DNA of 40,863 nucleotides, taken from positions 1 through 40,863 of the forward strand of contig NW_026250464.1 of assembly GCF_024521635.1 (NCBI RefSeq). Reading direction: 5' to 3'. The first letter of the stretch is position 1; every line of letters starts with the position of its first letter. Shown here one piece after another: positions 1 to 40,863 of this stretch. The DNA is from Tricharina praecox (Eukaryota). The notes beneath the pieces were generated by a model, which did not search any database, was not told the DNA's origin, and saw only the letters and a list, made by a program, of their open reading frames with translations. A program made the position numbers and the translations under genes.

Positions 1-642
1 ACCAAGCGACACATGCCGATGCTGGAAATGTGATGCATCCTCGGCTGGTTGGCATGGTACGATGCGACGACCGCAGCGGTGCAAAGTACCTAGGTACCCG
101 CACGTGTCTTTTCGGAACACGGTGACGGCTGCTTGACGGTTCAGCATCCCGCCATATGCACTACCCTCTCCTCTGCCCGACCGGCCGAGAAAACTGCATC
201 ACCGTCTGCCACAGCCTGCGAATGAGAGCCGAACGGCTGTGGAGCACCAGTAACACGAGTTGGTTACACGACCACCGGCGGCAGATGCCGTGGGCTGAGG
301 AGATACGTTCACAATCCGGTGGCTCGCCGCTCGCAGCGGCAGGTACCGGAGGTGAAGCTCAGCCGCACGGGGGGTTGCCAGATTGACTGGCCGACCGCGC
401 TCTTCTCCGCCGCCGCTCTTCTACGACAAACCCCCCTCCGCCGCAAAGCATCGGAAATGCCATAAAACGCACCTATTCCCCGCCCGGCTGTGTATTCCCC
501 TACCCAGCCAGCACCTCCATCCGCACTCGCAACGCTACGCAGGAACCCCCCGCCCTTTTCACGTCCGCCTTACCATCCAAATTTCCCATCCTCGATTCGA
601 CTCCATCCGTCTGCACTTCGAACAACCCCGCCATCAGTCAAT

Positions 643-980
643 ATGCGTTTCTCCCTCGCGTTCACCGCCCTCTTCCTCGCCCTCGCCGTCGCCGCTCCGA
701 GCCCAGGACCGAAAGACCGTTCCTGCTCACCCGAGCAGCGAATGATGTGTCGCAAGAGCGGCAGCTGCGCGGAGCGCGGTTAGTCTCCCCCCCCCCCCCC
801 CCCCCTCCTCTCATTGCCCATTCTCCGCAGGCAACGTGCTTCTGACACGCCCCAGAGTGCACGCCGGAGGAGGTCAGCGCCGGCGACCGCAGCGTCTGTC
901 ACGACCATGGATGTCCTGGCTACAACGCGTGTCTCGCGAGTGCGGGGCTGCCGCTGATGAAGTGTAAGATGGGAAATTGA
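643..980 (+). CDS. Small secreted cysteine-rich protein (86 aa, 8 Cys); exons 643-778 and 856-980
   Basis: ATG at 643 opens a hydrophobic signal peptide (MRFSLAFTALFLALAVAA). Intron 779-855 has GTTAGT donor, CTGAC branch and CAG acceptor. The spliced frame continues ECTPEEVSAGDRSVCHDHGCPGYNACLASAGLPLMKCKMGN to TGA at 978-980. Confidence 0.8.
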
Positions 981-2079
981 GTGGTATGGCTAGGGTCCTC
1001 TGGGAGGGAGGCGAGGGGGGAGGGGGCGGGTGGCGGGGACGGGAGTGTGCAAGAAGCATGTAATGCGAGGCGGCATAGAGAGGATGGATGTAGGAGGAGT
1101 ACTGAACGGCGATGTAATCGAGAGTCGTGGCGGGGAGGCGCCAGGTCGTGGACGTGGGTGTGATGGTTTTGTGCACGGTGATCGGAATTTGTGTGTTTTT
1201 TCTCGTGGTACGCGGGGGAATTTCTGTGCAGGGACGTGGATATAAGCAATTACTGAAAGCAGTTAGCTAGGAGAATGACACTTCAATTCTGCCCCGCTTT
1301 TTTCTGGTCCCCCCCATTGCAATAAATCTGTTGCGCAACGGGAGCGGTACATGGCGGGGTTGTGCACTGCTTCTGTGTTCTCCGATCCTGTCGAGAAGTT
1401 CCGTGTTCCGGCGGAGCAGATTGTGTGTCCCATCTGCAGGCCTCCTGCAGGGAGTGCCCGCGTGCCGAGCGGGGTGTGTGCGGGGAAACTGCCAAGCGAT
1501 GTCAGCACCGGAGGATCAATCTCTGTTGAACATGTATTGCACTGTAGAGTAGAGTAAAGTGTCCCTCTCTACTCTGATACCAGGCCTCCATCCAGTGTCA
1601 GGCCGTTCCTTCTCTCCATCGCCTCCAACGCACTCGAGCATCCGCCGCGCCGTCAGCCGACACACAGACGTCGGACACTCCAATAACTGTCGAGCGAACC
1701 CACCTCGAGAACACCTCTGGCCGCGATCTGTCGCTCTCGGCTGCTAGCTCCCGGTTGTAGCGGCGATCGCCGTGACAGCACTCCACCCCCGCCATCACAG
1801 CGAACACTCGCAGCGACGACATCGCTCACCACGCGCATCAACGCGACTGGGATGTGTCGCTGGAAACAGCGGGCGAAGACAGACCTGCGACACATTTCAC
1901 TGCGGCAACTGTGAATCCGATTCCAACAGGACCGATCTCCAAGCCACCCTGCAGCGAGCGCCATCGGCCAGTCCGGCGCGGCGAAGACTCGTAACCGACA
2001 GCTACGTTCCGGCCAGGTGATCCAGCGACAGTTGCAGAAGTGAAGCAAAGCTTGCTGGCAATCCACGCGAACCGCGAAA

Positions 2080-4494
2080 ATGGAATCTCTCCGCGCTCCA
2101 CAGCTGCACTTCCATTTCCCCCTAACGGCGCCATGCGAGACCCGGCTGATGTGTCGCGGTCCACTGCGGCCAGGCGGCTTCGAGCATTGGTTACGCGACC
2201 ACCCCGATCTCGCGCTGAAAAACACTCTGATCGACATCATCCGCTTCGGCGCCAAAATCGGCTACACGGGCCCGGAGCAGCTGATCGTCGGCAAGAATTC
2301 AACTTCCGCGTTCAAGGACCCGACGGCCATCGCTGCCGACATCCACAAACGCTCGGGGCTGCACCAGATCCAGGAGATCCCCGCTGCCCAACTGCCCGCA
2401 AAGTTCATCTCGTCGCCGCTCAGCCTCACGCCGAAGTCCGACGGCAGCTGGCGGCGCATCCACAACCTCTCCTCGCCCGCCGGCCGGTCCGTCAACGACC
2501 ACATCCCGCACGACTGGGGCACGCTGAAATTCACGCACTTCGACGACGCGGTGAACGCGATCCGCCTCGCGGGGCCGGGCACAACCCTAGTCAAGCGCGA
2601 CCTGGCCGACGCATACCGGCACATCCCGGTGCACCCGTCGGACTGGTGGCTCCTCGGCTTCAGCTGGGAAGGGCGCTACTACATCGACCAGTACCTGCCA
2701 TTCGGGCTGCGCACCGCGCCCATTATCTTCGACCTCTTCTCCTCGGCGCTCGAGTCGATCCTGCGCCGCGAGGGCTGGGACCTAACGCTCCACTACCTCG
2801 ACGACTTCCTGGGCATCATCCCGTCGCACCGCGCCGCCCCCGCCTTCATCCGCGACTTCGACCGCATCACCGCCGCCCTCGGCTTCAAGATCAACACCAA
2901 AAAGAACGACCACGGCACGTGCGTCACCTTCCTCGGCATCGAGATCGACACCATCGCGATGGAAGCCCGCCTTCCGCCCAAGAAACGCGCCAACGCCGTC
3001 CGTCAACTCAAATCCATCCTCCATGCCCGCCAAGTATCATTCTCAGACCTCGAATCCCTAACCGGCAGCCTCGCCTTCGCCGCGGGCATCGCGCCCACCA
3101 GCCGCGCGTTCCTGCGCAGCCTGTACGAGCTCCAACAATCGCACACGCGCAGCCGCGGCAGCGCTATCCAGCTCACCCCGGAGGCCCGCGAAGACCTGCT
3201 GTGGTGGGTCTCGTTCCTCGACGTCTGGAACGGCAAGCTCCGCCTCTCACCGCCGAAACGGACGTTTCGTATCTGGATATCCGCGTCCGGGGCGGGAGTC
3301 GGCGGGTACTTCCTCCATGACAACCAGAAGGAGCCCGCCGACCGCTCACAAACGTTCAGCACGCGCCTCCCGCCCGCCGAGCGCGCCAGCCCTATCGAGC
3401 AGAAAACGCTCCTCGCGGCCGTGCACGCGCTCACCACCTGGGCGGACCAGCTACGCGGCAGCAAGGTTCTGCTACGATGCAATAACGCGGCGGTTACGGA
3501 CGCGATACGGAAGAACCATATTGCGGGCGCGGCGAGAGCGCCGTTGCGCGCGCTTGCGAAGTTGGTCGCCGTTGGTCATGTGGTATTAGAGGTTGTGTGT
3601 GTTCCTGCGGGCGAGAATAGGTTGGCGGAGGCACTGGCGGGTGGCGATGAGGGAGGGGTTGGGGAGGCTTGTCCAAGGTTGAAGAACGCGGGGAAGGATG
3701 CAGGGAAGGAGGGGAGGAAGGGGGTGGAGATGAGGAAGGGCTCGGTGAAGGACGGGGGGAAGAGCGACAGTGTGAAGGCTGTGCAGAAGAATAAGGCTTG
3801 TCAAGAGGGGAAACAGAAGCCGAAAGTGGTGGTGATGACCGTGGCGATTGTGGCGAAGGGCCAGCCGAAGGAGAAGGCGAAGAATCGTCCGATGATTACG
3901 GTGAAGGAGGTATTGGAGAGGAAGCCGAAGGAGGCGGCGAAGGAAGCACCGAAGCCGAAGAGCAAACCGAAGGAGCCGGTGACGCCAAAGAATAAGCCCC
4001 AGGACCTGGTGAAGCAAAAATCGAAAGACGAGGGGAAGGCCACAGAGAACAGCAAGCAGAAGGGGACGGCGAACGACAAGCCAAAGAAAAAACCCAAGGA
4101 TGAAGTGAAGACGACGCCAAAGGACACGTCAAAGCAGAAGGTGAAGGACACGGCGAAGCAGACGCCGCAGAACAAGCCACAGAACAAGCCCAAGGATTCT
4201 GTGAAGCCAACGCCGAAGGACACACCCAAGAGCAAGCCGAACGCCGGCAAGGATGCGCAAAAGAACAAGCCGAACGACAAGCCGAACGACAAGCCAAAGG
4301 AAACGAGGAAAGAAACGCAAAAGAACAATCCGAACGCCACGGCCAAGGACATCCCAAAACCCAAGCCGAAAGAAGCACCAAAGCCAACACCGAAAGCCAC
4401 GCCCAAGAATAAGAATAAGAATGATACAGTACAAAACACAGCGAAGCCAAAACCGCAGGCGAAAGCCAACAAACCGGCGGCGAGCAAGAAATAA
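2080..4494 (+). CDS. DIRS/Ngaro-type reverse transcriptase + degenerate RNase H-like domain + Lys/Pro-rich C-terminal tail (804 aa)
   Basis: Uninterrupted ORF with tyrosine-recombinase-retroelement RT motifs: HPD..G.KIGY.GP, PKSDGSWRRIHNLS, KRDLADAYRHIPV, LPFGLRTAP, YLDDF (2794-2805), FLGIEID. RNase H-like fold at ~3265-3640. KPK-rich low-complexity tail from ~3680. Confidence 0.9.
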   Translation: MESLRAPQLHFHFPLTAPCETRLMCRGPLRPGGFEHWLRDHPDLALKNTLIDIIRFGAKIGYTGPEQLIVGKNSTSAFKDPTAIAADIHKRSGLHQIQEIPAAQLPAKFISSPLSLTPKSDGSWRRIHNLSSPAGRSVNDHIPHDWGTLKFTHFDDAVNAIRLAGPGTTLVKRDLADAYRHIPVHPSDWWLLGFSWEGRYYIDQYLPFGLRTAPIIFDLFSSALESILRREGWDLTLHYLDDFLGIIPSHRAAPAFIRDFDRITAALGFKINTKKNDHGTCVTFLGIEIDTIAMEARLPPKKRANAVRQLKSILHARQVSFSDLESLTGSLAFAAGIAPTSRAFLRSLYELQQSHTRSRGSAIQLTPEAREDLLWWVSFLDVWNGKLRLSPPKRTFRIWISASGAGVGGYFLHDNQKEPADRSQTFSTRLPPAERASPIEQKTLLAAVHALTTWADQLRGSKVLLRCNNAAVTDAIRKNHIAGAARAPLRALAKLVAVGHVVLEVVCVPAGENRLAEALAGGDEGGVGEACPRLKNAGKDAGKEGRKGVEMRKGSVKDGGKSDSVKAVQKNKACQEGKQKPKVVVMTVAIVAKGQPKEKAKNRPMITVKEVLERKPKEAAKEAPKPKSKPKEPVTPKNKPQDLVKQKSKDEGKATENSKQKGTANDKPKKKPKDEVKTTPKDTSKQKVKDTAKQTPQNKPQNKPKDSVKPTPKDTPKSKPNAGKDAQKNKPNDKPNDKPKETRKETQKNNPNATAKDIPKPKPKEAPKPTPKATPKNKNKNDTVQNTAKPKPQAKANKPAASKK

Positions 4495-5147
4495 TCCCGC
4501 TGGATAATCCTATCATTGGTACTTGAAGGTAGAGATGCGCCGCCGTACTACCTATTAGTATGTTTAATCTATCCTGTGACCGCATCATCCGTTGATCATT
4601 TGACCAGGACTGAGACAGCAGCCCGTGTGTCATAAGAGCAATCATCGTCGGTCACTCGGTGGTAGATACTGGGGCCCGCAGATTCCAATTGGTCTGATGC
4701 GGATTCCTTCAGGTTCATCTTGTACAGTTGTACTTTGAGCCTTGGTAGCTGCAACTATTCGGCACTTAACATATATAATAGATGATAGATTGGATTCGTG
4801 GATTGTGGTTTCAGGTATTCTTGTTGTGTTGTATTGCTATGTCCGTTTTGGTCGGGGCTGTTGATGCGCATGTGAATTGTGTTGATACTAAGTAATGGCA
4901 GTCTATACTATAGAAGTAAAAGAGTGATTACTAAAGGACTCGTTGGGATGACGAGCTTGGTACCGAGGCCCCAAACCAACCACGGGCGCCGCCGACGTTT
5001 CATCAGACATCACTCGGTGGCGTACCGCCGCCGGTTGTGAAGAAAAGTGGCATTTTGAAGTGGTGTACAGTGTATCAGACCTAGCCGCAAGAAAGCCTTA
5101 TGTAGGGGAGGCGGGGGCGCCTCGGATTGAGGCCGCTCCCCACCTCC

Positions 5148-5697
5148 CAGGACTGTCAACCGTCCGTCCGGACTACAGTCCACTAGTGGACTGTAGTCCC
5201 GTCCCGTTCCGGGCAGGCTTTCCAGAGGACTGATCCATTCCGCCCGGAGGATGAAGTGTCCGGATGCCCGCCAGGTACCTATGCGTACCTGATAGCACTA
5301 GCGTGCTATGCTGACGAATAGTTTGCGAAGTAGTATATAGCGCGGTGACCACCAACATAATTTTCAGCCCTGAGCAGAATTTTCAGCGTCGTCAAACAAT
5401 CGAGCTCAGGGGATAGACACTGCTGGAAGTAGGAACGGGGATGGTGTGAAAGTTCTATACCGTGAGAGACACTACGAAATGGAGCTGCACAGCCACACAT
5501 CCGTACACCTGCGCCACTGTGTGGCGCCACGCTGCTTGCATTGTCCTAGTGTCCCAGTCAATTCCGGGCCCTGTAGGGTATCCGTTCTCATTTCTCCAGC
5601 CCGGAGGACTGTACTCCTTGGTCTCCTCAGCCAGACTAATTCCGTCCCAGGCCGGGCAACCTCAAAAGACGGACGGGACGGACGGTTGACAGCCCTG
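5148..5697. mobile_element. hAT-superfamily MITE (550 bp)
   Basis: 22-bp TIRs CAGG(A/G)CTGTCAACCGTCCGTCC at 5148-5169 and 5676-5697 (1 mismatch). Perfect 8-bp TSD CCACCTCC at 5140-5147 and 5698-5705. No transposase. Confidence 0.9.
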
Positions 5698-6719
5698 CCA
5701 CCTCCGTGAGAACGGTCCGAACGGATACCGGATGGGAAGTGATCTCGTACGACACGGTACACAGAAGTTCGTGAGATCATGATAGCCGGTGCCTCAATAG
5801 GGGCTGGGTATCGACGTATCTATTGATCTATGGATGCAGTTTTGGCCTTTGAACGGATTTATGTCCGCTGAACCCTATCGAGTCACTGGTTACGACCTTA
5901 CGAAGAATCGCACTGGATGCTGCAATTTCCCTCGGTGCCGATACGTTCTTTAGTAGCTATCCGGCTATGTGCGTGACACGTCCTTCTCCTCCTCCGCAGC
6001 CCGCGTTGATTCGATCCATTTGGTACATTATAGACATGCAGAAAGACCAAATGAGGGTAGAGTGGAAGGTCAACCGTCAATGGAAATTTAATCGTCGCAG
6101 TGATTACTAGCGTGTATGAAATGTAGCAGTATGAAGATTGAAAAACTTGATAATTATCTCTCTCTTGCTGCCGCAATAGATCCACTACATACACGTGCTA
6201 TCTAGCTGACCTGCCGGCTTCACCGGCGACCAACTGCGCCGGAGCTGAATCACAGCGCTGTGGGCACTAAATCTGACTCGGACGCTTGATGTGTACTCCC
6301 GCGCCTAGCCCTCCGGCTCCCAAGAAGTTCGCACAAGGTATCGGACGTCTGGGTACATCTGACAGGTACCAGCGGATAGCCCTCCGACAAGTTGCTCGAA
6401 GCACCCCCGGACCGTCACTATCAACTACATTTGACGTTCTTTTCCGAGATTGACGCAGTCTGAAAATATGTAGGTAGGTCGGATAGTTCCACTTTACTCG
6501 ACTACCTAGTAGTACTGGTAATATTGTTACGGAATATCAATAATGCAACCACCGTCACGACGGAAATCAAACTGAGTTTCCGAAGTCCCCAGCGTCCGTA
6601 ATACTAGTACACATGACAGGCGCCCCGAAGGTCGACACCGATAATACAATTATAAAAATGCCAATTCAAACATTCATATCCGTGACCACGCGCTTGCACC
6701 TGCATCCCCGCCACGGCCC

Positions 6720-9370
6720 GGAAATAGGAACCGACCGCTCGTCCCCCTGTCAATGGTCGGTTCACAACCGACAACATGAAATCAAAAGCACATATGTTTC
6801 TCGGCTTCCCCGTGCGGCGCAACCGACGTAGTACTGCAGTAAGACAGAATGAACCTCCTGTATATTAGGTAGTCGGATTGCGATTCGGTTCCGTGGTTAT
6901 CGCTTTAGCATGCATGGCGGCAGAAGTGGTTGTTCTCGGATGGCGGTGCCTAATAGCGCGCATATGCTATCGGTACACGCGTCATCGCTCGTAGCGAGCC
7001 GAGAGACCCATGGTACGGGGAATTCAGCCGGGCATTCTTTACTCTGGATGATCCAATAATAATGGGACACCGCAGCCTGCAGGGGCCACCCAACATCTAC
7101 GCCGACCACACCGAAAACCATCTGAAACCCTTGGTCGGCATACCTACGAAAACAAACAACGATCGCGATCCAAACCGAGAAATATCCACAACGTGTAGTT
7201 CGGTAATACCTGGGTGGGGGTGGGATACCGTGGAAGATATGTGTTGTCGTTGGGCCGTTGGCCGAGATAACGGGACTACTCCCGGGGTGGCTCATCCGGC
7301 TGCTGGATCGTCGGTTATCGTACACTAGGTAGAGCCCCGAGTGAAATCTAATACTACTAGGTATATAGAGTACTCGTCGACGAGCTACTGAGTTGACTAT
7401 CGACCTTCGCTGTGGGATTCCGCTTTTCGTAGTGATAGGTATGTAGCGACGTCCCCAAAACTATGTGCTGTGTATGCGACGATCCTGTGACAATTCTCGG
7501 CAGAGAGTGCGATCCGGGGGAGCTTCGGCTGACGACAACACTAACTAGCAGACGCTATTGCACGCTGTAAACCGCCACCCTCGGGGGTCCGGGGATAGGC
7601 CGGCAGGGAGATTGACGGCGGAGACGAGGCGTGAAAGGACGATTGGTTGCGGGTTGGATGTTCCGCGTACAAGGGGTATCTGCAGTTCCTCGTCAAGATC
7701 CGAACGCGGGATTCGCACCAGACCACAAACTCAGAGTACACTTGTCTCATGCAGCGCCTGTCCGCGGGCGGGCGGCCGCCCGGGTGTCAATTACGCCGAA
7801 GATAATATCACCATCCCAACGGTAGCAAGTGCGTACCATGTCGGAAACCGCGGCCCGGATCAATCATCATTGATGGTATTTGAAAGCGGACAGCTGCGAC
7901 GCACTCGCCGCGCCGGGTCTACGGTTGGACATTCAGACTCCAGAAACCACGCAATAGGAACCCTCCTGTTCGCATCTAAAGAAAGGCCATGAACAGAACA
8001 TATGCGCTTGCACATATCATACAGTCGCACCTGTGTCCCCGCAACTAACCGGGGACCTTCAACCCGAGCAATCGTTCCTCATGTGTCGATCTTCAGGTCA
8101 CAGCCGACAACATGAAAGAAATTATCCGTAACCGACGTAAGACTGCAGTAATGTGGAATGCACCCCCGGTAAGCCGATGGCGATTCGGAGTGCCAGTGGT
8201 TGTCGATGTATGGCACATGTGGTTATTCTGTGATAGTGGTGCCTACTATAGTCTGCTACCGGTTCACGCGTCACTGCGCTCAACGAGCGTGGGAGACCCG
8301 CTAACGGTACGGGATTCAGCCAGGAACGATCCAACGATAAAGTAATGAGACACTGCAGACTGTAGGGGCCGACCACACTGAAAACTTTCCGAATCCGTTC
8401 GTCGTAATACGAATACGAGGATCAACCACGATCCGAACTCAGGAAAATCCATCGGATTGAATCGTGGCGTGCAGTTGAGAATTGTCAGGGTCGATGTTCC
8501 CAGGGCCTGGTGGTGAATACTGGTGGGGTTGTGAATGACCGCGATCGCCAGGCTACGCCGCCGGGGGTGGCTGATGCGGCAGTTCTACCGGATGATCTCA
8601 CAGTAGCATGTCCTCGTTTCTGCTTGATCGTGGGGTGTCGATCGTGCACTAGAGTAGAGCTTCGAGAGAATTCTGGTAGTACTACTACGGTTTATTTTTC
8701 GATTGCTGTGTTGGATTGAATTTCTTCGTAGTAGCCTAATATCATACGTAGCATGACGACCGCTTCCTGCGTCTCCGACGCTATATACATGCGATTATTC
8801 TGTGACACTTCTCGGTAGGTAGTGCACTGCGGAAGGATACCGGCACATATGATTGTCCGACAGGGCTTCGGCTGACGACAGCACTAACTAGCAACCGCGA
8901 ATGTCGGCTGTGACATGTGAACGGCTACTTTCGGGGAGTCCGCAATCCGGGGATAGATAGGATATCGACGGAGGCGGCGCCGAGGCGTGAAACAATGGTT
9001 GCGGGGTAGAAGCTTCCGCGTGCAACTTTGCAAGGGCTTTCTGCAGTTCCTCTTCGGGAGCGGAAGGCGGGAATTGCACGGAGTTACATACTCGTGAGTC
9101 GTAGATTGACTTGTCCAACGCAACCCATCTCCGTGGCCGGCCGGCCGATGGAAAAGTTGCCGAATTGATCCGAAAGGTCTCGGGCTCCACCGAAGATAGT
9201 ATCACTAATGGGTAGCAGATACCGCGTCGAAAACCATCAAGCGGGATGAATCACCGATCATTAATGATGGTAGGTAGTTGAAAGTTGACCGCTGCGTGCG
9301 AAGCTCTTGCCGAGTTGACCTTGCCGATGCCGGACAACCCGATTCCAGACTCCGGAAATCACGGAAAAGA
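6720..9370. repeat. Diverged head-to-tail tandem duplication (~1.3-kb unit, 2 copies)
   Basis: Collinear shared blocks offset by ~1.3-1.4 kb: CCGACAACATGAA (~6768/~8105), GCTTCGGCTGACGACA.CACTAACTAGCA (~7522/~8865), CTGCAGTTCCTC (~7680/~9042), CCGAAGATA.TATCAC (~7796/~9190), CAGACTCC.GAAA (~7934/~9346). Confidence 0.75.
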
Positions 9371-9442
9371 ATTCCCCCTCCCAGTTCGCATGTAACCAAA
9401 CGCCAGGAACAGAAAGAGTACTCTCTACAACCATCATCTCAA

Positions 9443-10607
9443 TCATACCGTGTTGTCGGCAAACAACGGGTCGTGACTCTTGCATTTTCTGATCTGGCGT
9501 GATACGGCGATGTCGTCTTCGCGGGAAAGGTTCGCGGCCGGAAGCAGGTTCATGGGGTGGCTGGATTCCGGCTGCTGCTGCCTGCTCGACTGCGGCACCA
9601 ATTCCACCTCCGCCGAAGCTGCTGGCGTACTACTCCGAAACTGCAGGCGCAGCTTCGTCCTCACACACACGCCAGTGGACACGAGCAGCGGCCACAGCGC
9701 GGGCGCGCTCGCCGAAACAATTCCAATCGCGAGCTCCGTCCTGCTTGCTGTCAACACGTACCGCCCCCCGCACACTCATCAACCGGCAGGATATGGTATA
9801 CTCACGTGGTCCAGATCGCCATCGACGTAGCCGTGCTACTCGGATCCACCCCACCCTTCACCAACGTCGCAACCCGGAATAGCCCCGCCACGCAGGCGAG
9901 GCCGCCCATTCCCAACAGGCACGCGACGGCGGTCTTCTTCCGCCATCCCAGGAACTGCACCCGAACGACCAGGAGTACGGGCAAAACCCACGCGAAGATA
10001 TCCAGCACTGCACTGGTGATCGGAGTCGAAAGCTGGATGAGGTAGAAGTTCAGACACCGCCCGTGGACAGATCCGCCCGGCGAAAACGAGGCCTTGACCG
10101 GGATGCACGTGAAGATGATCAGGAACGTGATGATGATCGTGAAGGTGACGTTGCAGATCATCAGGAGTGCCGCGGTCCGCCGGATCAGGGAGTACGGTGC
10201 GAGACGACGCGTCAGGATCAGGACCGAGACGCGGGTGAGTGCCGATGTGACAGGGTACAACGTGCGTGTTATGCCGTCGAGAAGTGCCTGGCTGCGGCCG
10301 GCGACTAGAGGAATGGACTCGCTCGGTTGGTCGAGATGGTAGTTGAGTACCATCAAGGAGTGGATCACGACTAGGGCGACGACGAGAAACTGCTCAAGAT
10401 CAGCATTGATGGCGTGACAACACAAGAGGAGAGGGCCGGGCTCACGGCTGAAAGGAGAATGCAGACATCGTCGCCGCTTAGCTTTCCCTGCAGCTTGAGG
10501 CGTGAAAAAACTCGGCCGACGAGGACCACGACGATGAGCGTGAGCAGCGAGAGGTCGACGACGAGCAATAGATGTGGCATGTTATACTCCGGGAGTCGCA
10601 ATGACAT
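9443..10607 (-). CDS. PTH11-like (CFEM-less) fungal 7-TM integral membrane protein, ~347 aa; exons 10607-10446, 10389-9806, 9740-9443
   Basis: Three exons joined by GTGAG...CAG introns with matching phases. Family motifs R.FSR...G.DD, IFTCIPV, LDI...LP, KK.AV..LLG.G, WT.TELAIGIVSASAPAL. Confidence 0.88.
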
Positions 10608-11099
10608 TGCTCCTGGAAAAGGCGAGGAAGATGGGCAGGATGGAGAGCAATGAGGGCACGACGGTCGAAGGGAGCGCACTTGGGTAACTATCCACATTTA
10701 CCGACTAGGCAAGGGAAGAATCCACCGTCTTAATCCCGATTACTCATGCGAGCCGTATGGGCGGGCAGGAGATGACAGGTAGCGGTGGTCGGCTATCCCC
10801 GCCTCATCTCTCCGTTCGACAGGATCGCTGCCCTGCCACCGAAAGGCGCAATGTGTACCTAGTTTGAGAAGCCGCCGCCGCGTGTTCCCCGTATCGTTCA
10901 CGTCGAGGATGTCTACTAATAGACAGCTTGACCGCATTCCAGTCGTTGCGCACGAAAAAAGCCAATCGCGAATAACCAATTCTGGTCCTGACGCAGGTAC
11001 CGAACATGAACGAGATGACCGGGAAAAAGCAATGACCGCACCCGAGACAGTGGACGCGAATGCTGGGGTGACAAAGCGTGGCAGGAAGCGACCCGCCGG

Positions 11100-11700
11100 C
11101 CACTCCGAAGATGTGCCAGGGCCAGCCACGCTAGCCGTTGGAAACACAAACCCGGGGTTTCGGCTAGAACTTGGAAGGTTGTCTGGATGATCTTGAAACC
11201 ACGGTGTCTCCACGCGTACTTAGGCAATTCCTCGGGTAAGTGCCCCGAGATATCATACTCTACAGATCGATAAACCGCACCCACGTGCGCAAGAAGATCT
11301 CAGCTCCATCCCTTGGTCCAGCTAATACAGGGAGAGGTTTTCAGGCACGCGAGCATCAGTTCAAGTGCCGCCGAACCTGGAAGGAACGACAGAGAGAACT
11401 GTGGGGGAGGCGGAGATGATCAGCGGCAGAGTCGAGACCGCAGGCGAATAGCCGACATGTTCGCCGATGAGCGGTTGGCGGGAGTAATCTTGACATTTCT
11501 CGGACACACGGAGATCGGAAGGAGAATCGATACCGGGAGAAGAAAGGCAGCGCGGCCCGCCGCCGAGCGAGCCATCGGGTGTGGACTACAGGGGCGAGTA
11601 GTAGAAAACGTGGAGGAAGGACCGAGGGGAGGAGAGGCGCAGCGGTCGTGGCAAGCGGAAAAATGGTTTGTGTTTTACATTGGCTTCTCTCGGGGGCAGG
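11100..11700 (+). mobile_element. Degenerate 3' fragment of a fungal (Tad1-like) LINE ORF2
   Basis: Frameshifted peptides QAREHQFKCRRTWKERQRELW (from 11342) and IADMFADERLAGVILTFLGHTEIGRR (11448-11525) resemble the C-terminal zinc-knuckle/end region of ascomycete LINE ORF2. Confidence 0.6.
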
Positions 11701-12211
11701 CGAGGGACGCCGATTAGCTACATACTCTCGTTGCGGCCGCTCTCTATCGTGCGGACGCCGTGATGTATATATGTCGCGAGATACGTCCATAAATTGATTT
11801 CCCGTCCCCCCATAGAGACGTTGCAAAGCCACCGGCCCCGGGGGTGGTGGTTGTTTCTATTTTTGGTATCACTCGGCAGTGTCATGTGATGAATCATGCT
11901 GTCATACGCCTTTCGCTGCCAGCTTTTGGTTTATTCAATCATCATTGCAATTCGAACTTAGTAGATCATGACAGATCAGGTACTATACTTATGTACTTCC
12001 TACTTTCTTTCTTCCCGCGGCTGTCACCAACCGCTGGGTCCGAACTAATACCGGTTCCCTATTGCTCACCGCCGCCCAGCCCACCCTGCTCGTCAATCCT
12101 CCCTGCCCCCTCGTCGCGGAATCCCTGGGCTAGTACGCCAACACGGAGAGCCACGCTTCTAGACTCGCGGACGGATTAGACTTGGTGTCACTGTTAGCGT
12201 TCGCCGAAGTC

Positions 12212-14646: not shown

Positions 14647-16343
14647 AGTGGTCATAGAGTCAGGCGCGTGCTGAAGAGTTGAAATCCTCTAACCCGGTCA
14701 AGGACGGCCACTTTGGGATCCAGCCTTTTTCATAGTTGGCGGAAGATTATCCCGTCGGGGTTTACCAAGCGCCAGTGCCGAATTGTTCGAGACAGCTCGG
14801 GCGCTCGATTCAATTATTTTCGTTGCGGCGATTCATCTAGTAGAAGGGTTGTAGTCGTCTCACCAGCCCTAGTAACTTTCCGGCGACTATGTAGCAAGTC
14901 ACGGCACGGTTTTTGTTTTTTTCTGGTGCTACATATCTCGGATGGTGAGCCGCATAACCGTTCCTTCTCGGCGGGTGGATCCATTGGAGCGCCTGAGCAC
15001 TAACTGACACTGTTGGGTTGTACATATGATCAAGTGACGCCGGAATGACTCAATCAACGGATGATGATTTAGCTCGTGAACAGCTATGCAGTGCTTCTCC
15101 ATAAGGCCTCCTTCAGTTGCCATGTTCCGGGTTACGTCAATAAGCGCGGAGCGGCTGAAAATTCGCTATGCATTGCTGCCTGGTATGCACGGTATATGCA
15201 GACGATCAACGGATTAAGCGATTGCGCTACGGATGCCACCAATGAACTCCAGCACCCCCGTCAAAGCCTAATCACACCCCCCCATCGCGCAGGTGTCAGC
15301 TGCAACCGATTGTTCCTGTCTGCCTGTGGCGCCGATTTCGGAACCACGCACGTGTGTCGCTATGGTCTCCCGCGCACGACCGAGCTACACCATGAAAAGA
15401 GAAAGACATGCGGGACAACATCTAGCCCAGCGAACGCGAGTTGGCAAACTAGGCATCGTAGCAGGTCGCATGGCGGCCGTTCGTTGGATGGTTTCAAAGT
15501 CTTCCTTTCGGTGTCACTGTCGTTGGAAGTTTGTGAGCACCTGCAGGAGTTGAAGAGTGCGGTCCGGAGAGATGGGTCAGGATGACTGCATCGCCATTCT
15601 TGAGCATCTGTTCGACGTGCAGTTGGTGATAGCACTCCCGTGATGAATCCCACCTCCGCCGTGCTACCGTATCCTACCCGTTGAGTCGCTCCATATCACT
15701 AGAAACGTACTCTGGCTAATGCCAGTGCCGGCATCGCTGTGTGCTACGGTGATAAGCTCATGATTTGTGATCTCCACCGTTACGAGCAGGGCAGTGGATG
15801 CTTGTTCGACTACTAACAGAGAAGCAATTACCATTGGTAATGAGCATACTCGTCGAGTGTATAGCCATACGCGAAGAGACTCAGCCTGATCCAATGTAGC
15901 ACTAATGCACGTGCCCAGCGAACCCCACAGCTAGAGGACGCCACATATGCGGGCCCACAACTAACATCTATAGCAGACTCTGGTATATCCTTAATAATAT
16001 CTCCATGGCAGCCTAAGTGGCCATTGTGGTCAATGGCAGGGGACAGGAAGCCACGCGCGAAGTGCGCACGTTCGACATACAGCCAACAATAGGTGTCCGA
16101 TACAGATTCAGCCTTCAGGACGGTGCCTGTCTGCCGAGGGTTTACGGGGAAGTACAAAAGCAGCGAGCCCTGGCGTGCGCAAATTTGCACCAGTGAGCAA
16201 TAGATATCAATCAAACTTGAGTTTCTTTACACCTAATACCCTCGCCAATTTTAAATCCTAGTACCTGCTCTTCCGGCAAAGAATCCAGTGCTGCTCGAAT
16301 CAATATCATTACCGCTCTATACTAGCTACAGAATCCACGCACT

Positions 16344-17789
16344 ATGGCCTACTACGACTGGAACGACGGTAGTATGACCTACCATGGTACCCAGAGTTAC
16401 GTCTACGACGGTTCTGGCTCCGGCGACGATGACATGGGATTCCCCGGTGGTGGCGTCGGCAACGATGACGAGAGCGACGAAGACGAGAGCGACGACGACG
16501 AGGGTGATGATGGCGAGGGCGACGAAGACGAAAGCGACGAAGACGAGGCCGACGAAGACGAGGCCGACGACGACGAGGGCGATGATGGTGAGGGCGACGA
16601 AGACGAAAGCGACGATGGCGAGGGCGATGATGACGAGGATGACGATGACGAGGGCGACGACGACGAGGGCGACAACGACGAGGGTGATGATGGCGAGGGT
16701 GATGATGGCGAGGCCGACGAAGACGAGGCCGACGAAGACGAGGCCGACGACGACGAGGGCGATGATGGTGAGGGCGACGAAGACGAAAGCGACGATGGCG
16801 AGGGCGATGAAGACGAGGATGACGATGACGAGGGCGACGACGACGAGGGCGACAACGACGAGGGTGATGATGGCGAGGGTGATGATGGCGAGGCCGACGA
16901 AGACGAGGCCGACGAAGACGAGGCCGACGAAGACGAGGCCGACGACGACGAGGGCGATGATGGTGAGGGCGACGAAGACGAAAGCGACGATGGCGAGGGC
17001 GATGATGACGAGGATGACGATGACGAGGGCGACGACGACGACGATGGTGATTACTATTTTGATGACTAGTAAGTTAAAATGAGGAGAAATGTCTGCAGTA
17101 TCTCAGCTTACGGTAGTCACAGCGACAAACATGACGGCTCGAGTTACAACTATGGAGTCACTGCAAGCGCACAATATATCACGGCTGGCTCAGGACCACC
17201 TCCTCCACCGATGCCTCAGGGCTACGGTCTAGACCCCAACGCTTTCTTTCAAGGTCAACCCCTCTTGATCTATGCCATCAGCAGGGGCGACTCGCAAGCT
17301 GCGGAATCACTTATCCGTAACGGCGCATCAATTGACCATTTAAGCATTGAACACTACAACATCACAGTGCAGTATTTTTACCAGACCCAGAACCGCTACT
17401 TCATGAACATGCTGGCGCAGAACAACCCTGCTCGTCACGGAAGAGGTTCTTCGCGCACTAGCGCCCCCTCACTGAGGCCGGGAACGAGGAGCAGTTCTTG
17501 CGCAGGGCGGTGGCCGGGTAGGGGAAGTGAAAGGGGCCACAGATCGGACAGGGGGAGTGGTGGAGCGCGGGGTTCTGACAGGGGAGGTGGAAGACGCCGT
17601 CGATCAGACACGGGGAACGGTAGAGGGCGGAGCTCCGTCAGGGGTGGAAGCGGCCGTGGGGCAGACGCGGGGAAGAGTGGAGCGCGGGGTTCTGTCAGGG
17701 GGGATGGTAGGGGCAGGGGCCCGTTCAGAGGAGGTAGCATAGGACGGAATCCGGTCAGGGGGAACGGTAGGCGCGAGCCGCAGTGTTGA
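16344..17789 (+). CDS. Hypothetical protein (~463 aa): Asp/Glu-rich repeat tract, one ankyrin-like repeat, Arg/Gly-rich tail; exons 16344-17068 and 17123-17789
   Basis: ORFs 16344 and 17079 join in frame through a 54-nt intron (GTAAGT at 17069, GCTTAC branch, CACAG ending 17122), which removes the apparent TAG. Ankyrin-like segment GQPLLIYAISRGDSQAAESLIRNGASID. Confidence 0.75.
16462..17045 (+). repeat. Coding minisatellite: 15-bp units in a 180-bp higher-order repeat
   Basis: 16561-16620 = 16741-16800 and 16681-16740 = 16861-16920. The third copy carries one extra 15-bp unit. Confidence 0.9.
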
Positions 17790-20663: not shown

Positions 20664-21535
20664 TACCTGGTTGATCCTGCCAGTAGTCATATGCTTGTCT
20701 CAAAGATTAAGCCATGCATGTCTAAGTATAAGCAATCTATACAGTGAAACTGCGAATGGCTCATTAAATCAGTTATCGTTTATTTGATAGTAACTCACTA
20801 CTTGGATAACCGTGGTAATTCTAGAGCTAATACATGCTAAAAGCCCTGACTTCGGAAGGGGCGTATTTATTAGATAAAAAACCAATGACTTCGGCCTCCT
20901 TGGTGATTCGTGATAACTTTACGAACCGCATGGCCTTGCGCCGGCGATGGTTCATTCAAATTTCTGCCCTATCAACTTTTGATGGTAGGATAGTGGCCTT
21001 CCATGGTTTCAACGGGTAACGGGGAATTAGGGTTCTATTCCGGAGAGGGAGTCTGAGAAACGGCTACCACATCCAAGGAAGGCAGCAGGCGTGCAAATTA
21101 CCCAATCCCGACACGGTGAAGTAGTGACAATAAATACTGATACAGGGCCCTTTCGGGTCTTGTAATTGGAATGAGTACAATTTAAATCGATTAACGAGGA
21201 ACAATTGGAGGGCAAGTCTGGTGCCAGCAGCCGCGGTAATTCCAGCTCCAACAGCGTATATTAAAGTTGATGCAGTTAAAAAGCTCGTAGTTGAACCTTG
21301 GGTCTGGATGACCGGTCCGCCTCACCGCGTGCACTGGGAATCCGGACCTTTCCTTCTGGCAAACCTCATGCCCTTGACTGGGTGTGTTAGGGAACCAGGA
21401 CTTTTACTTTGAACAACTTAAAGTGTTCAAAGCAGGCATTTGCTCGAATACATTAGCATGGAATAATAAAATAGGACGTGCGGTTCTATTTTGTTCGTTT
21501 CTAGGACCGCCGTAATGATTAATAGGGATAGTCGG
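20664..21535 (+). rRNA. 18S rRNA, 5' part (interrupted, pseudogenised copy)
   Basis: Starts TACCTGGTTGATCCTGCCAGTAGTCATATGCTTGTCTC and contains GTGCCAGCAGCCGCGGTAA. Breaks at the GTCGG TSD. Confidence 0.97.
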
Positions 21536-22045
21536 TGTAATGGCACGGTCGGGCAAGGCTCCAGGTAGCGAAGCCGGGCTGGGGGTCGGGTTCTGGGTTC
21601 GGTAGAGGCAAGACAGGTTCAGGGGACAAGGTGAGGCAGGGCTCAGTGCAGACGGCAACTGAGAACAGAGGCAGGGACAAGGACTTCGGCGCAGACGGCA
21701 GCCGAGGCAAGGGCAGAGGTAACTGTGATTGAATTAACAAGTTGTTGCGTGAAGAAACAAGTACAGAGGGGCAACGGCCCGTTTATATAGGAAACCCTCC
21801 ACTTCTTCTCGCAACCTGACAATAACCGTGGGCGTGTGCCAGACCCTGAGAAATCCACCTTGCCAGTACCCCGCTTCCGTGACTCATACCCTGCGCAGCT
21901 GCACTACCCCTGCTTACTGCACACAGCCCCAATTCCTCCGGCTCATTCCTGCATTGCCGCCGGCGCAGCCCCTTGCACTGCCCCCGCGCTGCCTTCCCAC
22001 CCCTGTTCCGACTCTTCCTCGAACGTCCCGTCGCGAGCCGTGACA
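21536..22045 (-). repeat. 3' LTR of the family A element
   Basis: TG..CA ends, preceded on the minus strand by the PPT. Confidence 0.95.
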
Positions 22046-37919: not shown

Positions 37920-38661
37920 TGTGAGACTGGAATGATTTCGGTCGTCGGAGTCGATTGATAGAATAAGATAAAGATGAGGAGAGATACTATTCTTTTCTTT
38001 CACAAACGGAATAATCTTAAGGGGTAGTGTGGATGGTTTTCTTGCTGCTGATTCCGATGATGAATCTTTCGCCGTGTCGTCGGAAGTCTATATAGTTGGG
38101 TGAATTGGTCGATTCACGTGGCAGCCGCTGCCGTAGGTTGCTGGGGCATTGAAACCCCGGCGTGCAATCTCCGCACTTGGTGCGGAGACTTTCTCCGCCA
38201 TGACATCAGAGTCGCCGTAAGCCTTCAGGATAGTTTATACAAACTACGCAGGTTTGGCGTACCAACCCTTACCCGAGCATACTCCGGTTTCAGCTATCTC
38301 TTCGCTGGGCAACGGCTGCGCCATTCGGCACGGCTGTTATTTGTTTAAGACGCGAGAAGAGGGGCAACACTTGTCATAGTGGTTTTTCTCTGAACAGAGT
38401 TTTCTCTGCGCTTGCTCGTGATTTGGCTGCCTCATGTCAAGCATGACTGTATCGGACCTTAGTGCGTATTGCTGCGCGTCTGATCCCACCTAGACACTGG
38501 TCCCGTTTGCTTGCTTCCTTCCTATCTTGTCTCTGACAAGCTACGACTAATCTCAAGCTTCCTTTCTCCTGCTCTCCGATCTTATCTAACCATTTTCCCC
38601 AAACTTCGCTTGGTAAGAGGTCGGACCCCGAAGTCGGGCCGACTACAACCAGGGTGTCACA
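37920..38661 (-). mobile_element. LTR (family B-related, ~742 bp), no TSD
   Basis: TGTGAGACTGG...AGGGTGTCACA ends. Shares ACGGAATAATCTTAAGGG and CCGTTTGCTT..CCTTCCTATCTTGTC with the 35397-36500 LTR. Confidence 0.8.
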
Positions 38662-40863
38662 CCGAACCTGAGAAAAACGAACTGGATTCGAGAAGACGGA
38701 CAACCCCTACGTCCGTGCCCAAGCCAAGAAACGGAAACCGACCGATAGTGGAGATGATGTTACACTGGGGCAACAAACAACAATGCACAATGCGAGTGTT
38801 ACTAGACACTGGCTGTTCTACCCCCCTCCTGGACTCCTCCCTATCGTCACGGTTACAGATTCCCTGGCAGAAACAGGAACAAGCCGTCAGCTTGCGTGGC
38901 TTCACCGGCGAACCCATCAAAGAAGGCGGCCAATATTATACAATGCCCCTTCTCCTCCAACACCGGAACCACTACTCCGAAGAAGTCTTCGAGATGACCT
39001 CCCTCGAACGTGGAGTGGACCTGTTCCTCCCCTTCTGATGAATAGCGAAGCACGCCCCACAAGGTGCTTGGGACACCCCTGAACTCAGCTTCAACAGCCC
39101 CTCCTGTTTAAAGAACTGCACTAAACACGCAGTAACGGAGTTTCCCCTAAGCTATGACCCGTGGATTACAAACACTCCGGACGCCAGGGTATTGGATACG
39201 TCACGGCCGTTGAGCTGGCGACGGACCCCTTGGAACACGTACCAGCAGAGTTCCGCGACTTTCTTGATATCATGAGAAAAGAAGCCGCAGATGCACTTCC
39301 GGAACACCGCTTTTACGGCCACGAGATCCGGCTCAAGGAAGATACCACACCTCCTTGGGGTCCGGTCTATGCCCTCTCGGAAGCAGAGCTCGAAGCCCAC
39401 CGAGAATGGTTGAAGGACATGCCAAGGACCAGAGAGATACGTCGGTCCACTTCCAGCGCGGGAGCCCCGATTCTCTTCGTCCCGAAAGCCCACGGATGTG
39501 GTCTACGCCTTTGCGTCGACTATCGAAGACTCAACCGCGTCATTATCGCCAATCGATACCCATTCCCACTCAGGTCTGAACTACAAGACAGGATCCGTGG
39601 AGCAGAGTACTTCACCAAGATTGACCTGAACAATGGTTATCACCTGGTACGCATGAAGGAAGGAGACGAGTGGAAGACAGCATTCCGATCACGTTATGGC
39701 CTCTAGGAATTTCTCGTTATGCCGTTTGGGCTGTCCAACGCTGCTGCTACCTTCCAGGACATCATGAATCATATCTTTCGGTATATGATTGATCTCGGCC
39801 TTGTTACCTATATTGACGACCTTCTCATCTACGCCTCTACTAGGGCGGAGAATGATGAAATAGTCAAAGAAGTCCTGCGACGTCTGACAGCTAAAAACTG
39901 GCCGTATCAGCGAAAAAATGCGAGTGGAGGAAGCATGACGTGGAATTTCTCGGTTATGTAGTTAGCCGAGAAGTAATCAAGATGGCAGGAGACAAAGTGG
40001 AAAGTCTGCTTGAGTGGGCAGTACCCCGGCCCCAGCGAAACGTTGAATCCTTTCTGGGCTTTGCTAACTTCTATCGCCGCTTTATCAAGGACTACGCAAG
40101 GGTCGCGCGCCCGTTGACGGAGTCTACGAAAGGTGATGAGAAGATTTGGGAATGGACGCCCGACAGAGACTACGAACAGATTAGCCGAAAGGCCGGGATA
40201 CTCAGGGTGGAAGATGTATGTGTTTATCGGAAGGAGAAGTTGTGGATACCGAACAACAAAGGCCTGATCCAGCAGGTCCTGGGGTCAGAGCACGATACCA
40301 AAGTCGCCGGCCATATGGGCCAGGACACAACGATCGAGTTGATTCGACGCAACTTTTGGTGGCCAACAATGGATGAAGCCATCATCGACTTGGTGCGTGG
40401 CTGTCCTGAACGTCAAAAAAAAAAGACAGCGCGACACCAACCCTATGGACTCCTAAACCCCCTCTAACTCCCTTACGCTCCATGGCAATCCATCGCTATG
40501 GACTTCATCACCGATCTACCCAAGTCCGAGGAATGCGACCAACTCTGGGTAGTCATCGACCGGTTCACTAAGATGGCGCATTTCATTCCCCTACGAAAGG
40601 ACAGCAAGATGGCCAGCGACCTCGCGATGATCTTCGCCCGCGAAATCTGGCGCTTCCACGGCCTACCCTCCGATATCCTATCGGACAGGGATTAACGCTT
40701 CACGTCGGATATGTGGAAGGAATTTATTTAGCTTTTAGGCATCAAGGCAAGGATGTCTACGGCGTTCCACCCCCAAACAGACGGACAAACAGAACGCCTC
40801 AATCAGATCATCGAAGCTTACCTCCGCTCCATCGTCAACAACGACCAAGACGACTGGGTTAGC
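38662..40863 (+). pseudogene. pol: Degenerate Gypsy pol (protease, RT, integrase; RNase H deleted), runs off the window
   Basis: VLLDTGCS, LCVDYRRLN, MPFGLSNA, YIDD, H....GH.G, MDFITDLP, SDRD. In-frame stops at 39036, 39704, 40465 and 40693. WEWTP jumps to the integrase linker at ~40160. Confidence 0.92.

Follow-up and report, generated by a model that had tools for sequence, protein, structure and literature searches.

A candidate cellular reverse transcriptase of Ngaro/DIRS-type descent, with a degenerate RNase H site, in the ascomycete Tricharina praecox

A reverse transcriptase (RT) gene in a 40.9-kb stretch of Tricharina praecox DNA (the whole stretch analysed, hereafter the window) is best explained as a member of a small, old family derived from the pol gene of a Ngaro/DIRS-type tyrosine recombinase (YR) retroelement. 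The family probably consists of genes retained by the host, the products of which are predicted to be competent as polymerases and dead as RNases H. In the aligned sequences, every family member has a conserved polymerase active site and a destroyed RNase H active site. The mobility parts are lost and one domain is left intact, as in a domesticated gene.

Transcript and coding sequence

The features of the gene, numbered from the first letter of the window, are as follows.

1572..2079, + strand: transcript 5' end and 5'UTR, about 480-510 nt (X4 contig starts at 1572, just after adapter letters; X3 contig starts at 1601)
2080..4494, + strand: coding sequence, 804 codons plus TAA
2431..2946, + strand: RT palm/fingers, residues 118-289 (Pfam RVT_1, E 2.6e-14, 53.9 bits, cut-off 29.6)
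3253..3669, + strand: RNase H-like fold, residues ~392-530 (Pfam RT_RNaseH at 392-477, 29.8 bits, cut-off 24.8)
3682..4491, + strand: basic disordered tail, 270 residues (27% K, 13% P, net charge +48)
4558..4607, + strand: 3'UTR spliceosomal intron, 50 nt, GT..AG, 63 nt past the stop codon
4608..4901, + strand: last 3'UTR exon (contigs end at 4901 in X3 and 4897 in X4, adapter letters next)

The frame is open from 2044 to 4494 with its first ATG at 2080, in agreement with the 804 stop-free codons given in a preliminary description of this DNA. Spliced contigs matching the gene were found in three separate studies (X3, X4 and X5); none of these is recorded as RNA and their derivation from RNA is inferred from the splicing itself. 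The X3 contig (3273 nt) has zero differing letters relative to the window, and the X3 and X4 contigs cover the gene from 1572/1601 to 4897/4901 with the intron removed. The splice joint (4557>4608) was observed in contigs of all three studies and is absent from an X1 DNA contig spanning 4021-5182. The gene is a monocistronic, spliced and expressed transcription unit, and these contigs provide the expression that had been proposed as a check. In this respect it behaves like an ordinary gene, as a domesticated one would.

The transcript starts about 500 nt upstream of the ATG; a short upstream ORF was read inside the 5'UTR, with its start near 1852. An intron-like stretch of about 50-56 nt (GTATGT...CTAAC...AG) follows the stop codon in two related loci, L004 and L005, and the 3'UTR intron is possibly conserved in both. 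The X3 and X4 runs also show expression of at least one divergent paralogue, whose pieces at 2251-2270 and 2641-2680 have loose ends. Since the window is rich in transposable elements (TEs) and divergent paralogue sequence is expressed in the same runs, the RT family has multiplied somehow.

Domain organization of the protein

The catalytic residues of the RT, D174 (codon start 2599) and the YLDD motif Y239-D242 (Y239 codon start 2794), are intact at the positions that had been reported for them, and they are invariant in alignments of 15 and of 69 sequences. The RT part of the predicted structure has a pLDDT above 90, and the solved folds nearest to the model are the RTs of foamy virus, CaMV, MMLV and Ty3. 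Pfam matches of the protein (P0001) were confined to the RVT_1 and RT_RNaseH families and a chance match to KYNU_C, and a search of the ESM Atlas returned generic RT clusters only, with uninformative taxa. The N-terminal stretch right after the ATG is kept in L004, L002, L015 and P0004.

The RNase H fold is retained in the model (strands 395-402, 406-413, 425-429, 462-467 and 502-507, with pLDDT above 90) and all four of its carboxylate positions are substituted (S401, T443, N468 and E517). Of 69 aligned sequences, at least 90% have D/E/D/D in these four columns. This destroyed active site had escaped the preliminary description.

The tail that follows contains PK[DE] motifs and a 12-nt periodicity, and it is predicted to be disordered (pLDDT below 50 at residues 548-765 and 768-804). 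The preference for C- or G-ending codons that had been noticed across the RT was confirmed, as GC3 is 0.83 in the RT-RNase H (RT-RH) part and 0.75 in the tail, compared with 0.62 in a gypsy pol and 0.70 in a host exon of the same window.

Relatives and loss of the RNase H active site

A total of 88 homologues were found, and the gene nests among three-ORF Gag-RT/RH-YR elements of the Ngaro/DIRS type. In a HMMER search, the best 150 of 22,131 matches were all of this same pol type. Homology with element pol is clear over residues ~25-535, sister proteins being 45-50% identical and the three-ORF elements 34-36%. Five RNase H-defective proteins including the T. praecox RT form one clade in the tree (89 rows; SH-aLRT 99), within which the four tail-bearing proteins form a subclade (SH-aLRT 100). 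The tail-sharing relatives are 51-56% identical over the full length and 61-66% over the RT-RH core. A phylogeny against several RT groups had been suggested earlier as a check; the placement inside the YR-element RTs and the five-member clade answer it in part, as the set included no rvt reference.

The RNase H tetrad DEDD is intact in 77 of the 90 rows and in none of the five clade members, whose residues are S,T,N,E (T. praecox), D,K,D,G, D,K,D,N, H,K,D,D and S,E,E,R. The polymerase D...DD, on the other hand, is kept in all five clade members and in 88 of the 90 rows. A further 142 representatives comprise 85 with DEDD, six fully covered and non-DEDD and 51 only partly covered. Each of the five clade members also carries a basic disordered extension. 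Where this is a C-terminal tail, its net charge is +24 to +48, with a composition like that of T. praecox in P0002, P0003 and the L004 ORF, while the L002 gene carries an N-terminal extension (net charge +22) instead of a C-terminal tail.

Two clade members lie on metagenome contigs of 38-50 kb with ordinary genes around them. L004/L008 are flanked by a C2H2 zinc-finger gene and a GH31 gene, L002/L003 are surrounded by Sec63/DnaJ, RPS7e, PX and PH genes, and Gag or YR was not found within 10 kb on either side of these loci. The two loci of each pair have common flanks and probably represent one species sampled more than once. One metagenome project contains several family members. Of the sisters that bear DEDD, P0004 belongs to a 90% cluster of nine members and P0007 to one of two, sizes which by themselves suggest that they are elements. 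Comparison of the window ORFs of at least 50 aa with 17 metagenome loci gave 71 rows and no synteny, as the four rows outside the RT region were all gypsy-like DNA in L013; blastn of the window flanks against the same 17 loci gave no nucleotide similarity beyond the CDS.

Search for mobility components

Recombinase, intact Gag, split direct repeats and inverted termini had all been described as missing nearby, and every search made here agrees. A Pfam scan of the 84 window ORFs of at least 110 aa found no Gag or YR domain and no Phage_integrase. When the window was searched by tblastn with two YR-bearing relatives (P0041 and P0058), the matches were confined to the RT-RH part, and ten Gag and YR queries from related elements gave zero matches in the 40.9 kb. 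The queries without a match include YR from L007, L009, L010 and L011 and Gag from L006, L009, L010, L011 and P0058. These queries are able to find such parts, because with them the layout of gag, in-frame stop, RT-RH and YR was seen in relatives at 34-36% identity, in full in L011 and cut by the contig end in L006, L007, L009 and L010. The search for flanking direct, split direct or inverted terminal repeats over positions 1-12000 gave only chance matches of 16-22 nt and repeats internal to the tail. A Dam-like methyltransferase domain (PF05869), which is a DIRS1-like trait, is absent from P0001 and present in the distant matches P0086 and P0087.

Selection and copy number

The dN/dS values (NG86) over residues 25-535 range from 0.07 to 0.28 in six pairs and are rough, as dS is above 1 and saturated, and undefined for one pair. 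They nevertheless lie well below 1, the outcome that the earlier reading predicted. Under the same saturation, the RT part gave 0.07-0.20 and the connection plus RNase H part 0.13-0.44. All the ORFs compared (750-940 codons) are open despite dS above 1. Rough as they are, these values point to purifying selection over a long divergence, as would be looked for in a domesticated gene. Lineages of active elements, too, are expected to be under purifying selection. Allelic differences among L004, L008 and L001 comprise five non-synonymous and one synonymous, six columns being too few to weigh.

Low copy number is hinted at by two observations. The depth of X1 DNA metagenome contigs, which is not equivalent to copy number, is 8.5, 9.0 and 6.9 for the gene and 6.7, 8.6 and 7.6 for its flanks, and is 100-400 for the adjoining MITE. 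In 90% clustering, the clade members are singletons and the element-type relatives fall into clusters of 9-12 members.

These data bear on the alternative that the gene belongs to a still-mobile, non-autonomous or unconventional RT-only retroelement, which would depend for its movement on Gag and recombinase supplied in trans from autonomous relatives, or else prime at broken DNA or the ends of chromosomes, with host RNase H as the substitute. Retroelements without an RNase H domain or without an endonuclease exist, and the nesting of the RT among mobile-element RTs, the presence of at least two expressed family members in T. praecox and of several in one metagenome project, the TE-rich surroundings and the lack of synteny with the 17 loci would all suit such an element. 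However, neither terminal repeats nor common non-coding ends were found, the gene is as deep as its flanks in contrast to the MITE, the clade members are singletons and the window has no telomere repeats. The genomic copy also keeps its intron although the transcript is spliced, the relatives sit amid housekeeping genes, and members that are all intact at saturated dS do not have the look of young copies. We therefore regard a mobile RT-only element as unlikely. The stand-alone cellular RT with a remodelled C-terminus that had been proposed earlier gains from the transcript, the clade, the tail, the gene context of the relatives, the dN/dS values and the depth; its premise about damaged TEs proved false and synteny was not found.

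Proposed activity

As a host-retained gene product, the T. praecox RT would still copy RNA into DNA. The template RNA would not be degraded, and the first-strand cDNA would be left as an RNA:DNA hybrid because the protein is predicted to be unable to remove the template. RNase H carboxylate point mutants of retroviral RTs keep polymerase activity and leave RNA:DNA hybrids, and the proposed mechanism builds on that behaviour. The loss seen in the alignment also fits the idea of RNA:DNA hybrid formation in the preliminary description. The K/P-rich tail, or its N-terminal equivalent in one paralogue, may serve in unspecific nucleic-acid binding or nuclear targeting.

It is also conceivable that the host uses the RT fold without polymerisation, either as a scaffold that binds RNA or hybrids or by pairing with the RT of related elements and poisoning it in a dominant-negative manner. 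Catalytically silent RT-like folds occur in cells, Prp8 being an example, and in the present family RNase H activity appears to have been abandoned and the tail suggests binding of nucleic acids. Against this, D174, YLDD and the motif residues around them do not vary among the five clade members even at saturated synonymous divergence, which is hard to explain unless catalysis is in use, and a non-polymerising role is accordingly judged improbable. Quite implausible is a dead Ngaro-like remnant with an RT-RH ORF open by chance, a chance promoter and no function for host or element: decay would indeed remove Gag and YR and ruin the RNase H site, and the sole Ascomycota Ngaro reported in a 2013 survey is termed a remnant (PMC3783388), but the ORF is open over 804 codons with a GC3 of 0.83, the polymerase motifs are invariant and four relatives are no less intact at dS above 1, the RT part has a dN/dS of 0.07-0.20, the basic extension was acquired and retained and the mRNA is well formed and spliced.

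For the product of the host-retained, polymerase-competent gene, the narrow distribution of the family leads us to guess at a role against RNA parasites such as related retroelements, and not in housekeeping. More broadly, and tentatively, Pezizomycete fungi may possess an undescribed cellular RT family that was exapted from a Ngaro-like pol, shed its RNase H and acquired a basic region resembling histone tails, and which would act on selected RNAs, forming and retaining stable RNA:DNA hybrids or single-stranded cDNA, for retroelement or mycovirus defence or for genome maintenance. A putative defence of this kind would be analogous in logic to the bacterial defence RTs.

Comparison with known systems

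To our knowledge very few eukaryotic cellular RTs have been described, namely TERT, rvt and the inactive fold in Prp8. The T. praecox RT resembles TERT as a candidate cellular RT of retroelement descent. It was rejected as a TERT, having no telomerase RNA-binding domain in Pfam, no telomere repeats nearby and a different RT clade. The rvt genes, reported by Gladyshev and Arkhipova in 2011, are said to be cellular, single-copy and related to RTs, and to occur in fungi as well as in other eukaryotes. Like them, the T. praecox RT is stand-alone, without endonuclease or integrase, expressed, under apparent purifying selection and apparently of single or low copy; unlike them, it nests inside the YR-retroelement RTs and keeps a degenerate RNase H fold. 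Membership in rvt was also rejected, as the nearest relatives are all YR-element pol in a set that included no rvt reference. Both exclusions had been anticipated in the preliminary description.

The nearness of its RT fold to foamy virus, MMLV, CaMV and Ty3 likens the protein to the RNase H-minus retroviral RTs, although the loss in the T. praecox family is natural and clade-wide, unlike that in the mutants. The 'connection' domain of retroviral RTs is a degenerate RNase H. Unlike those RTs, the T. praecox protein has no second RNase H domain and is disordered after the fold.

With Ngaro/DIRS pol the protein has in common the N-terminal domain of that family, the RT motifs and the RNase H fold. 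It differs from this pol by the loss of the RNase H tetrad and the addition of the 270-aa basic tail, and the gene differs from the elements in having no Gag ORF, YR ORF, terminal repeats or methyltransferase domain, and in having a 3'UTR intron and a depth like that of its flanks. The host differs too, since T. praecox is an ascomycete of the class Pezizomycetes and Ngaro/DIRS-type elements are almost absent from Ascomycota in the 2013 survey (PMC3783388). The family is relevant to the question why this phylum has hardly any Ngaro-type elements.

No paper on a domesticated DIRS/Ngaro RT was found in the literature searched, and within that literature a eukaryotic cellular RT derived from a YR retroelement would be unprecedented. 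The kept polymerase site, the dismantled RNase H and the added basic disordered extension point to a specific activity, in which first-strand cDNA ends as a stable RNA:DNA hybrid. With its descent from a jumping gene, its loss of the jumping parts and its expression, the gene qualifies well as a candidate cellular RT of a new type. It is short, with an intron-free CDS, and is well expressed in a culturable ascomycete, so that recombinant assays, knockouts and sequencing of hybrids or cDNA are feasible.

Genomic neighbourhood

The other features recognised in the window are listed below.

643 to ~990: small secreted-protein gene (host gene)
9805..10581, - strand: fungal-rhodopsin-domain gene (host gene)
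21535..21834 and 26622..26921: Ty3/gypsy LTRs, 300 nt, 98% identical
21946..25926, - strand: Ty3/gypsy pol ORF, 1327 aa uninterrupted (RT, RNase H, integrase, chromodomain)
25490..26422, - strand: gag ORF of the same Ty3/gypsy element

The RT gene had been described as sitting among host genes, which holds only thinly: the secreted-protein and fungal-rhodopsin-domain genes are present, but they are the only two host genes recognised in 40.9 kb. No telomere repeats were found in the window. The claim that all other TE coding regions of the window are damaged is contradicted by the intact Ty3/gypsy element at 21.5-26.9 kb, with its uninterrupted pol, its gag and its nearly identical LTRs. The window as a whole is TE-rich, and a MITE adjoins the RT gene.

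The reverse transcriptase gene and its transcript

The reading frame of the reverse transcriptase (RT) gene P0001 is free of stops at 2044-4494(+), and its first ATG at 2080 opens 804 codons followed by TAA. Two Pfam domains were found in the protein:

Pfam domains of P0001
Residues 118-289: RVT_1 (E 2.6e-14)
Residues 392-477: RT-associated RNase H family (29.8 bits, cut-off 24.8)

The polymerase site is intact (D174 and Y239-L-D-D242). The 804-codon frame with D174 and YLDD is real and lies at the nucleotide positions named in the preliminary description, and the bias towards C/G-ending codons reported there is also real, since third-position G+C is 0.83 for the RT plus RNase H (RT-RH) part and 0.75 for the tail, compared with 0.62 for the window's gypsy pol and 0.70 for a host exon. 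P0001 itself was absent from the protein collection searched, which returned 88 homologues.

Contigs of four public runs were placed on window positions 1-12000. A single 3273-nt contig of run X3 spans 1601-4557 and 4608-4901 without a differing letter, while two contigs of X4 correspond to 1572-3640 and to 3802-4557 plus 4608-4897, with adapter letters immediately outside 1572 and 4897. The joint 4557>4608 is also present in X5. The 50 nt left out start with GT and end with AG, and a contig of the soil DNA run X1 passes this place unspliced. Two host genes were recognised in the window:

643-~990, plus strand: small cysteine-rich secreted-protein gene, signal-peptide-like N-terminus, 77-nt intron 778-854
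9805-10581, minus strand: fungal-rhodopsin-domain gene

The setting among host genes claimed previously is only thinly borne out, recognisable host genes being few. The spliced form of the upstream cysteine-rich gene, with its own 77-nt GT..AG joint, was found in the same three runs (X3, X4 and X5). As spliced joints of two genes occur in them, these runs, from three studies, hold spliced RNA, and expression, which the preliminary description had proposed to look for, is seen as spliced contigs in all three. The mRNA is about 3.25 kb long, with a 5'UTR of about 500 nt carrying a short upstream ORF and a 3'UTR intron starting 63 nt past the stop codon. It contains a single long ORF and nothing Gag-like or recombinase-like; the gene is transcribed as a separate unit.

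Past the stop codons of two relatives, L004 (+15) and L005 (+36), there is likewise a GTATGT, then a CTAAC-type branch motif and, about 50-56 nt on, an AG. The 3'UTR intron is possibly conserved in all three genes, RNA support being for the window's intron only, and such conservation would argue for inheritance as DNA, not via spliced RNA.

Absence of mobility parts

Pfam searches of all 84 other window ORFs of at least 110 aa found no recombinase and no Gag except that of the gypsy element, and in tblastn the homologues P0041 and P0058, which bear a tyrosine recombinase (YR), matched the window only in the RT-RH part. Six metagenome relatives with 34-36% identity to P0001 (L006, L007, L009, L010, L011, L013) have the layout gag, in-frame stop, RT/RH and recombinase ORF, whole in L011 and ending at the contig edge in the others. 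Ten Gag/YR queries taken from them readily match one another and gave zero matches in the window, L001-L005 and L008. Repeat searches of window 1-12000 and 1-7000 yielded only tail-internal repeats and 16-22-nt chance pairs. These four lines of search agree with the earlier claim that recombinase, Gag and terminal repeats are lacking near the RT. The gene clearly descends from Ngaro/DIRS elements. As an Ngaro/DIRS mobile unit P0001 was rejected: four defining features of these elements (recombinase, Gag, terminal repeats and a catalytic RNase H) were looked for and not found, which places it outside the mobile elements.

In L006, L010 and L011, gag and RT/RH share one frame with a single stop codon between them, which suggests that the pol of the three-ORF relatives is expressed by stop-codon read-through.

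The ORF with the rhodopsin domain shows 99% identity to an NCBI protein of Tricharina praecox, which belongs to the Pyronemataceae (Pezizomycetes). No account of a domesticated DIRS/Ngaro RT turned up in full-text literature searches. In a 2013 survey of 177 fungal genomes, YR retroelements are placed mainly in Basidiomycota and early lineages, and the single Ngaro in Ascomycota, in Neosartorya fischeri, is called a remnant (PMC3783388).

A clade with a defective RNase H

The closest of the 88 homologues, P0002 (909 aa) and P0003 (754 aa), share 55-56% identity with P0001 over the full length and 64-66% in the RT-RH core, and likewise end in long K/P/D/T-rich tails. Two further genes were added by a metagenome scan, namely a 941-aa tailed ORF (L004/L008/L001) and the gene encoding P0006 (L002/L003). 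Of 90 aligned sequences, 77 have D, E, D, D at the four carboxylate positions of RNase H, columns that are at least 90% conserved in a 69-row alignment. The polymerase aspartates are kept in all five of the genes below.

RNase H tetrad residues
P0001: S, T, N, E
P0002: D, K, D, G
P0003: D, K, D, N
L004 ORF: H, K, D, D
P0006 (L002/L003): S, E, E, R

The other eight non-DEDD rows comprise four truncated sequences and four apparently decayed ones, one of which (P0028) has YLDN instead of YLDD. An RT phylogeny of the homologues places P0001 in a distinct clade of the five RNase H-defective genes (SH-aLRT 99), with the four tail-bearing genes as a subclade within it (SH-aLRT 100); this maximum-likelihood tree has 89 rows (P0056 left out for low coverage) and came from a 'quick' search with no bootstrap. 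The sisters of the clade, P0004 and P0007, have DEDD. The differing substitutions at differing positions suggest that the RNase H constraint was lifted early in the clade and the polymerase constraint retained. When 1.84 billion representatives were searched exhaustively with HMMER, there were 22,131 matches, of which only P0003 (63%) and P0006 (50%) are full-length and closer than 46%, besides a few fragments at 50-58%; the clade is therefore rare.

Fold and basic extensions

AlphaFold2, given 69 sequences, produced a model in which pLDDT exceeds 90 for 498 residues and essentially residues 1-540 are modelled well. It retains the sheet and helices of an RNase H-like fold, and the metal ligands of that fold are missing in P0001. 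Foldseek matched the model to the RTs of foamy virus, CaMV, MMLV, XMRV and Ty3 (E 1e-17 to 6e-21).

Residues 548-765 and 768-804 have pLDDT below 50, and the tail is strongly basic and disordered (K 27%, P 13%, net charge +48). Net charges of the other tails are +48 (P0002), +39 (P0003) and +24 (L004). The L002 gene is without a tail and carries a 175-aa A/S/P/K-rich N-terminal extension (+22) with three near-identical repeats (L002 9371-10150); the database gene model of this P0006-type paralogue (493 aa) begins downstream of it. Taken together, tails and extension make a basic disordered region a second character common to the clade. In its N-terminal extension the L004 ORF has 14 glycine codons in a row (L004 ~9830-9880); the length of this run differs among samples through indels of 12 and 21 nt that keep the frame.

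Context, selection and depth

In L004/L008 (contigs of 49.8 and 38.5 kb) the gene lies between C2H2 zinc-finger and GH31 glycosidase genes, and in L002/L003 (49.5 and 49.8 kb) its neighbours are Sec63/DnaJ, ribosomal protein S7e, PX and PH/BAR genes. The same two samples yielded both L002 and L004, and the tetranucleotide usage of the two correlates at r = 0.86 (0.79-0.86 with the window), which fits, but does not prove, two old paralogues in one genome akin to the window's organism. An extra contig in X3 and X4, which matches the gene only at 2251-2270 and 2641-2680, both short and conserved, and then continues as RT-like sequence, points to a divergent expressed paralogue in the window's organism too.

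The dN/dS analysis proposed earlier was carried out by the Nei-Gojobori method among the window, L005, L004 and L002:

dN/dS ranges (dS 1.1-4, saturated; undefined for one pair)
RT part: 0.07-0.20
Connection plus RNase H part: 0.13-0.44
Overall, residues 25-535: 0.08-0.28

Purifying selection would be expected in an active element lineage as well, but long-diverged intact genes without all other element parts would not, and a mobile RT-only element is an unlikely reading of P0001. In X1 the window's organism is present along the entire 12 kb with few differences. Mean word depth, which is not copy number, is 8.5, 9.0 and 6.9 for gene contigs and 6.7, 8.6 and 7.6 for flanks, a likeness that is only a hint of copy number. 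Members of the five-gene clade are singletons in 90% clusters; element-type relatives have at most 12 members on at most 21 contigs.

Proposed function

P0001 is expressed, and its polymerase site is complete and of the retroviral type. Retroviral enzymes with mutated RNase H carboxylates still polymerise, but they cannot clear away the template and come to a halt once the first strand is made. The P0001 enzyme may copy RNA into DNA and leave the hybrid, and its tail could help it to bind nucleic acids unspecifically or to reach the nucleus. A role in interference or defence is tentatively favoured. That P0001 is a non-catalytic scaffold appears improbable beside its polymerase site, and a dead remnant is very hard to credit. 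P0001 is best filed as a candidate retroelement-derived cellular RT gene; the stand-alone RT of the preliminary description stands on stronger evidence than before, with one of its arguments, the damage to other transposable elements (TEs), being wrong.

Other features of the window

Contrary to the statement that every other TE coding region is damaged, an apparently intact Ty3/gypsy chromovirus, probably young and possibly active, occupies 21535-26921(-), with LTRs of 300 nt each that are 98% identical. The damaged TE meant earlier is probably the fragmented pol.

21946-25926, minus strand: Ty3/gypsy pol ORF, 1327 aa (RT, RNase H, integrase, SH3, chromodomain)
25490-26422, minus strand: Ty3/gypsy gag ORF
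38484-40464, plus strand: fragmented gypsy-like pol (separate ORFs for pieces of aspartyl protease, RT and integrase zinc finger)
5148-5698: MITE-like element, ~550 bp, 22-nt terminal inverted repeats, 95% complementary

In X1 the MITE has a depth of 100-400 against about 8 around it, and many contigs with differing flanks. Two copies of one sequence, with about 80% similarity and a spacing of about 1.34 kb, lie at 6748-7718 and 8084-9079; they hold four collinear repeat families (spacing 1336-1361), and their ORFs gave zero Pfam matches. Finally, of the six frames of the low-complexity sequence at 16326-17102, five are open, with ORFs of 215-258 aa; GC and AT are strongly skewed there, and there is a weak extensin-like match.
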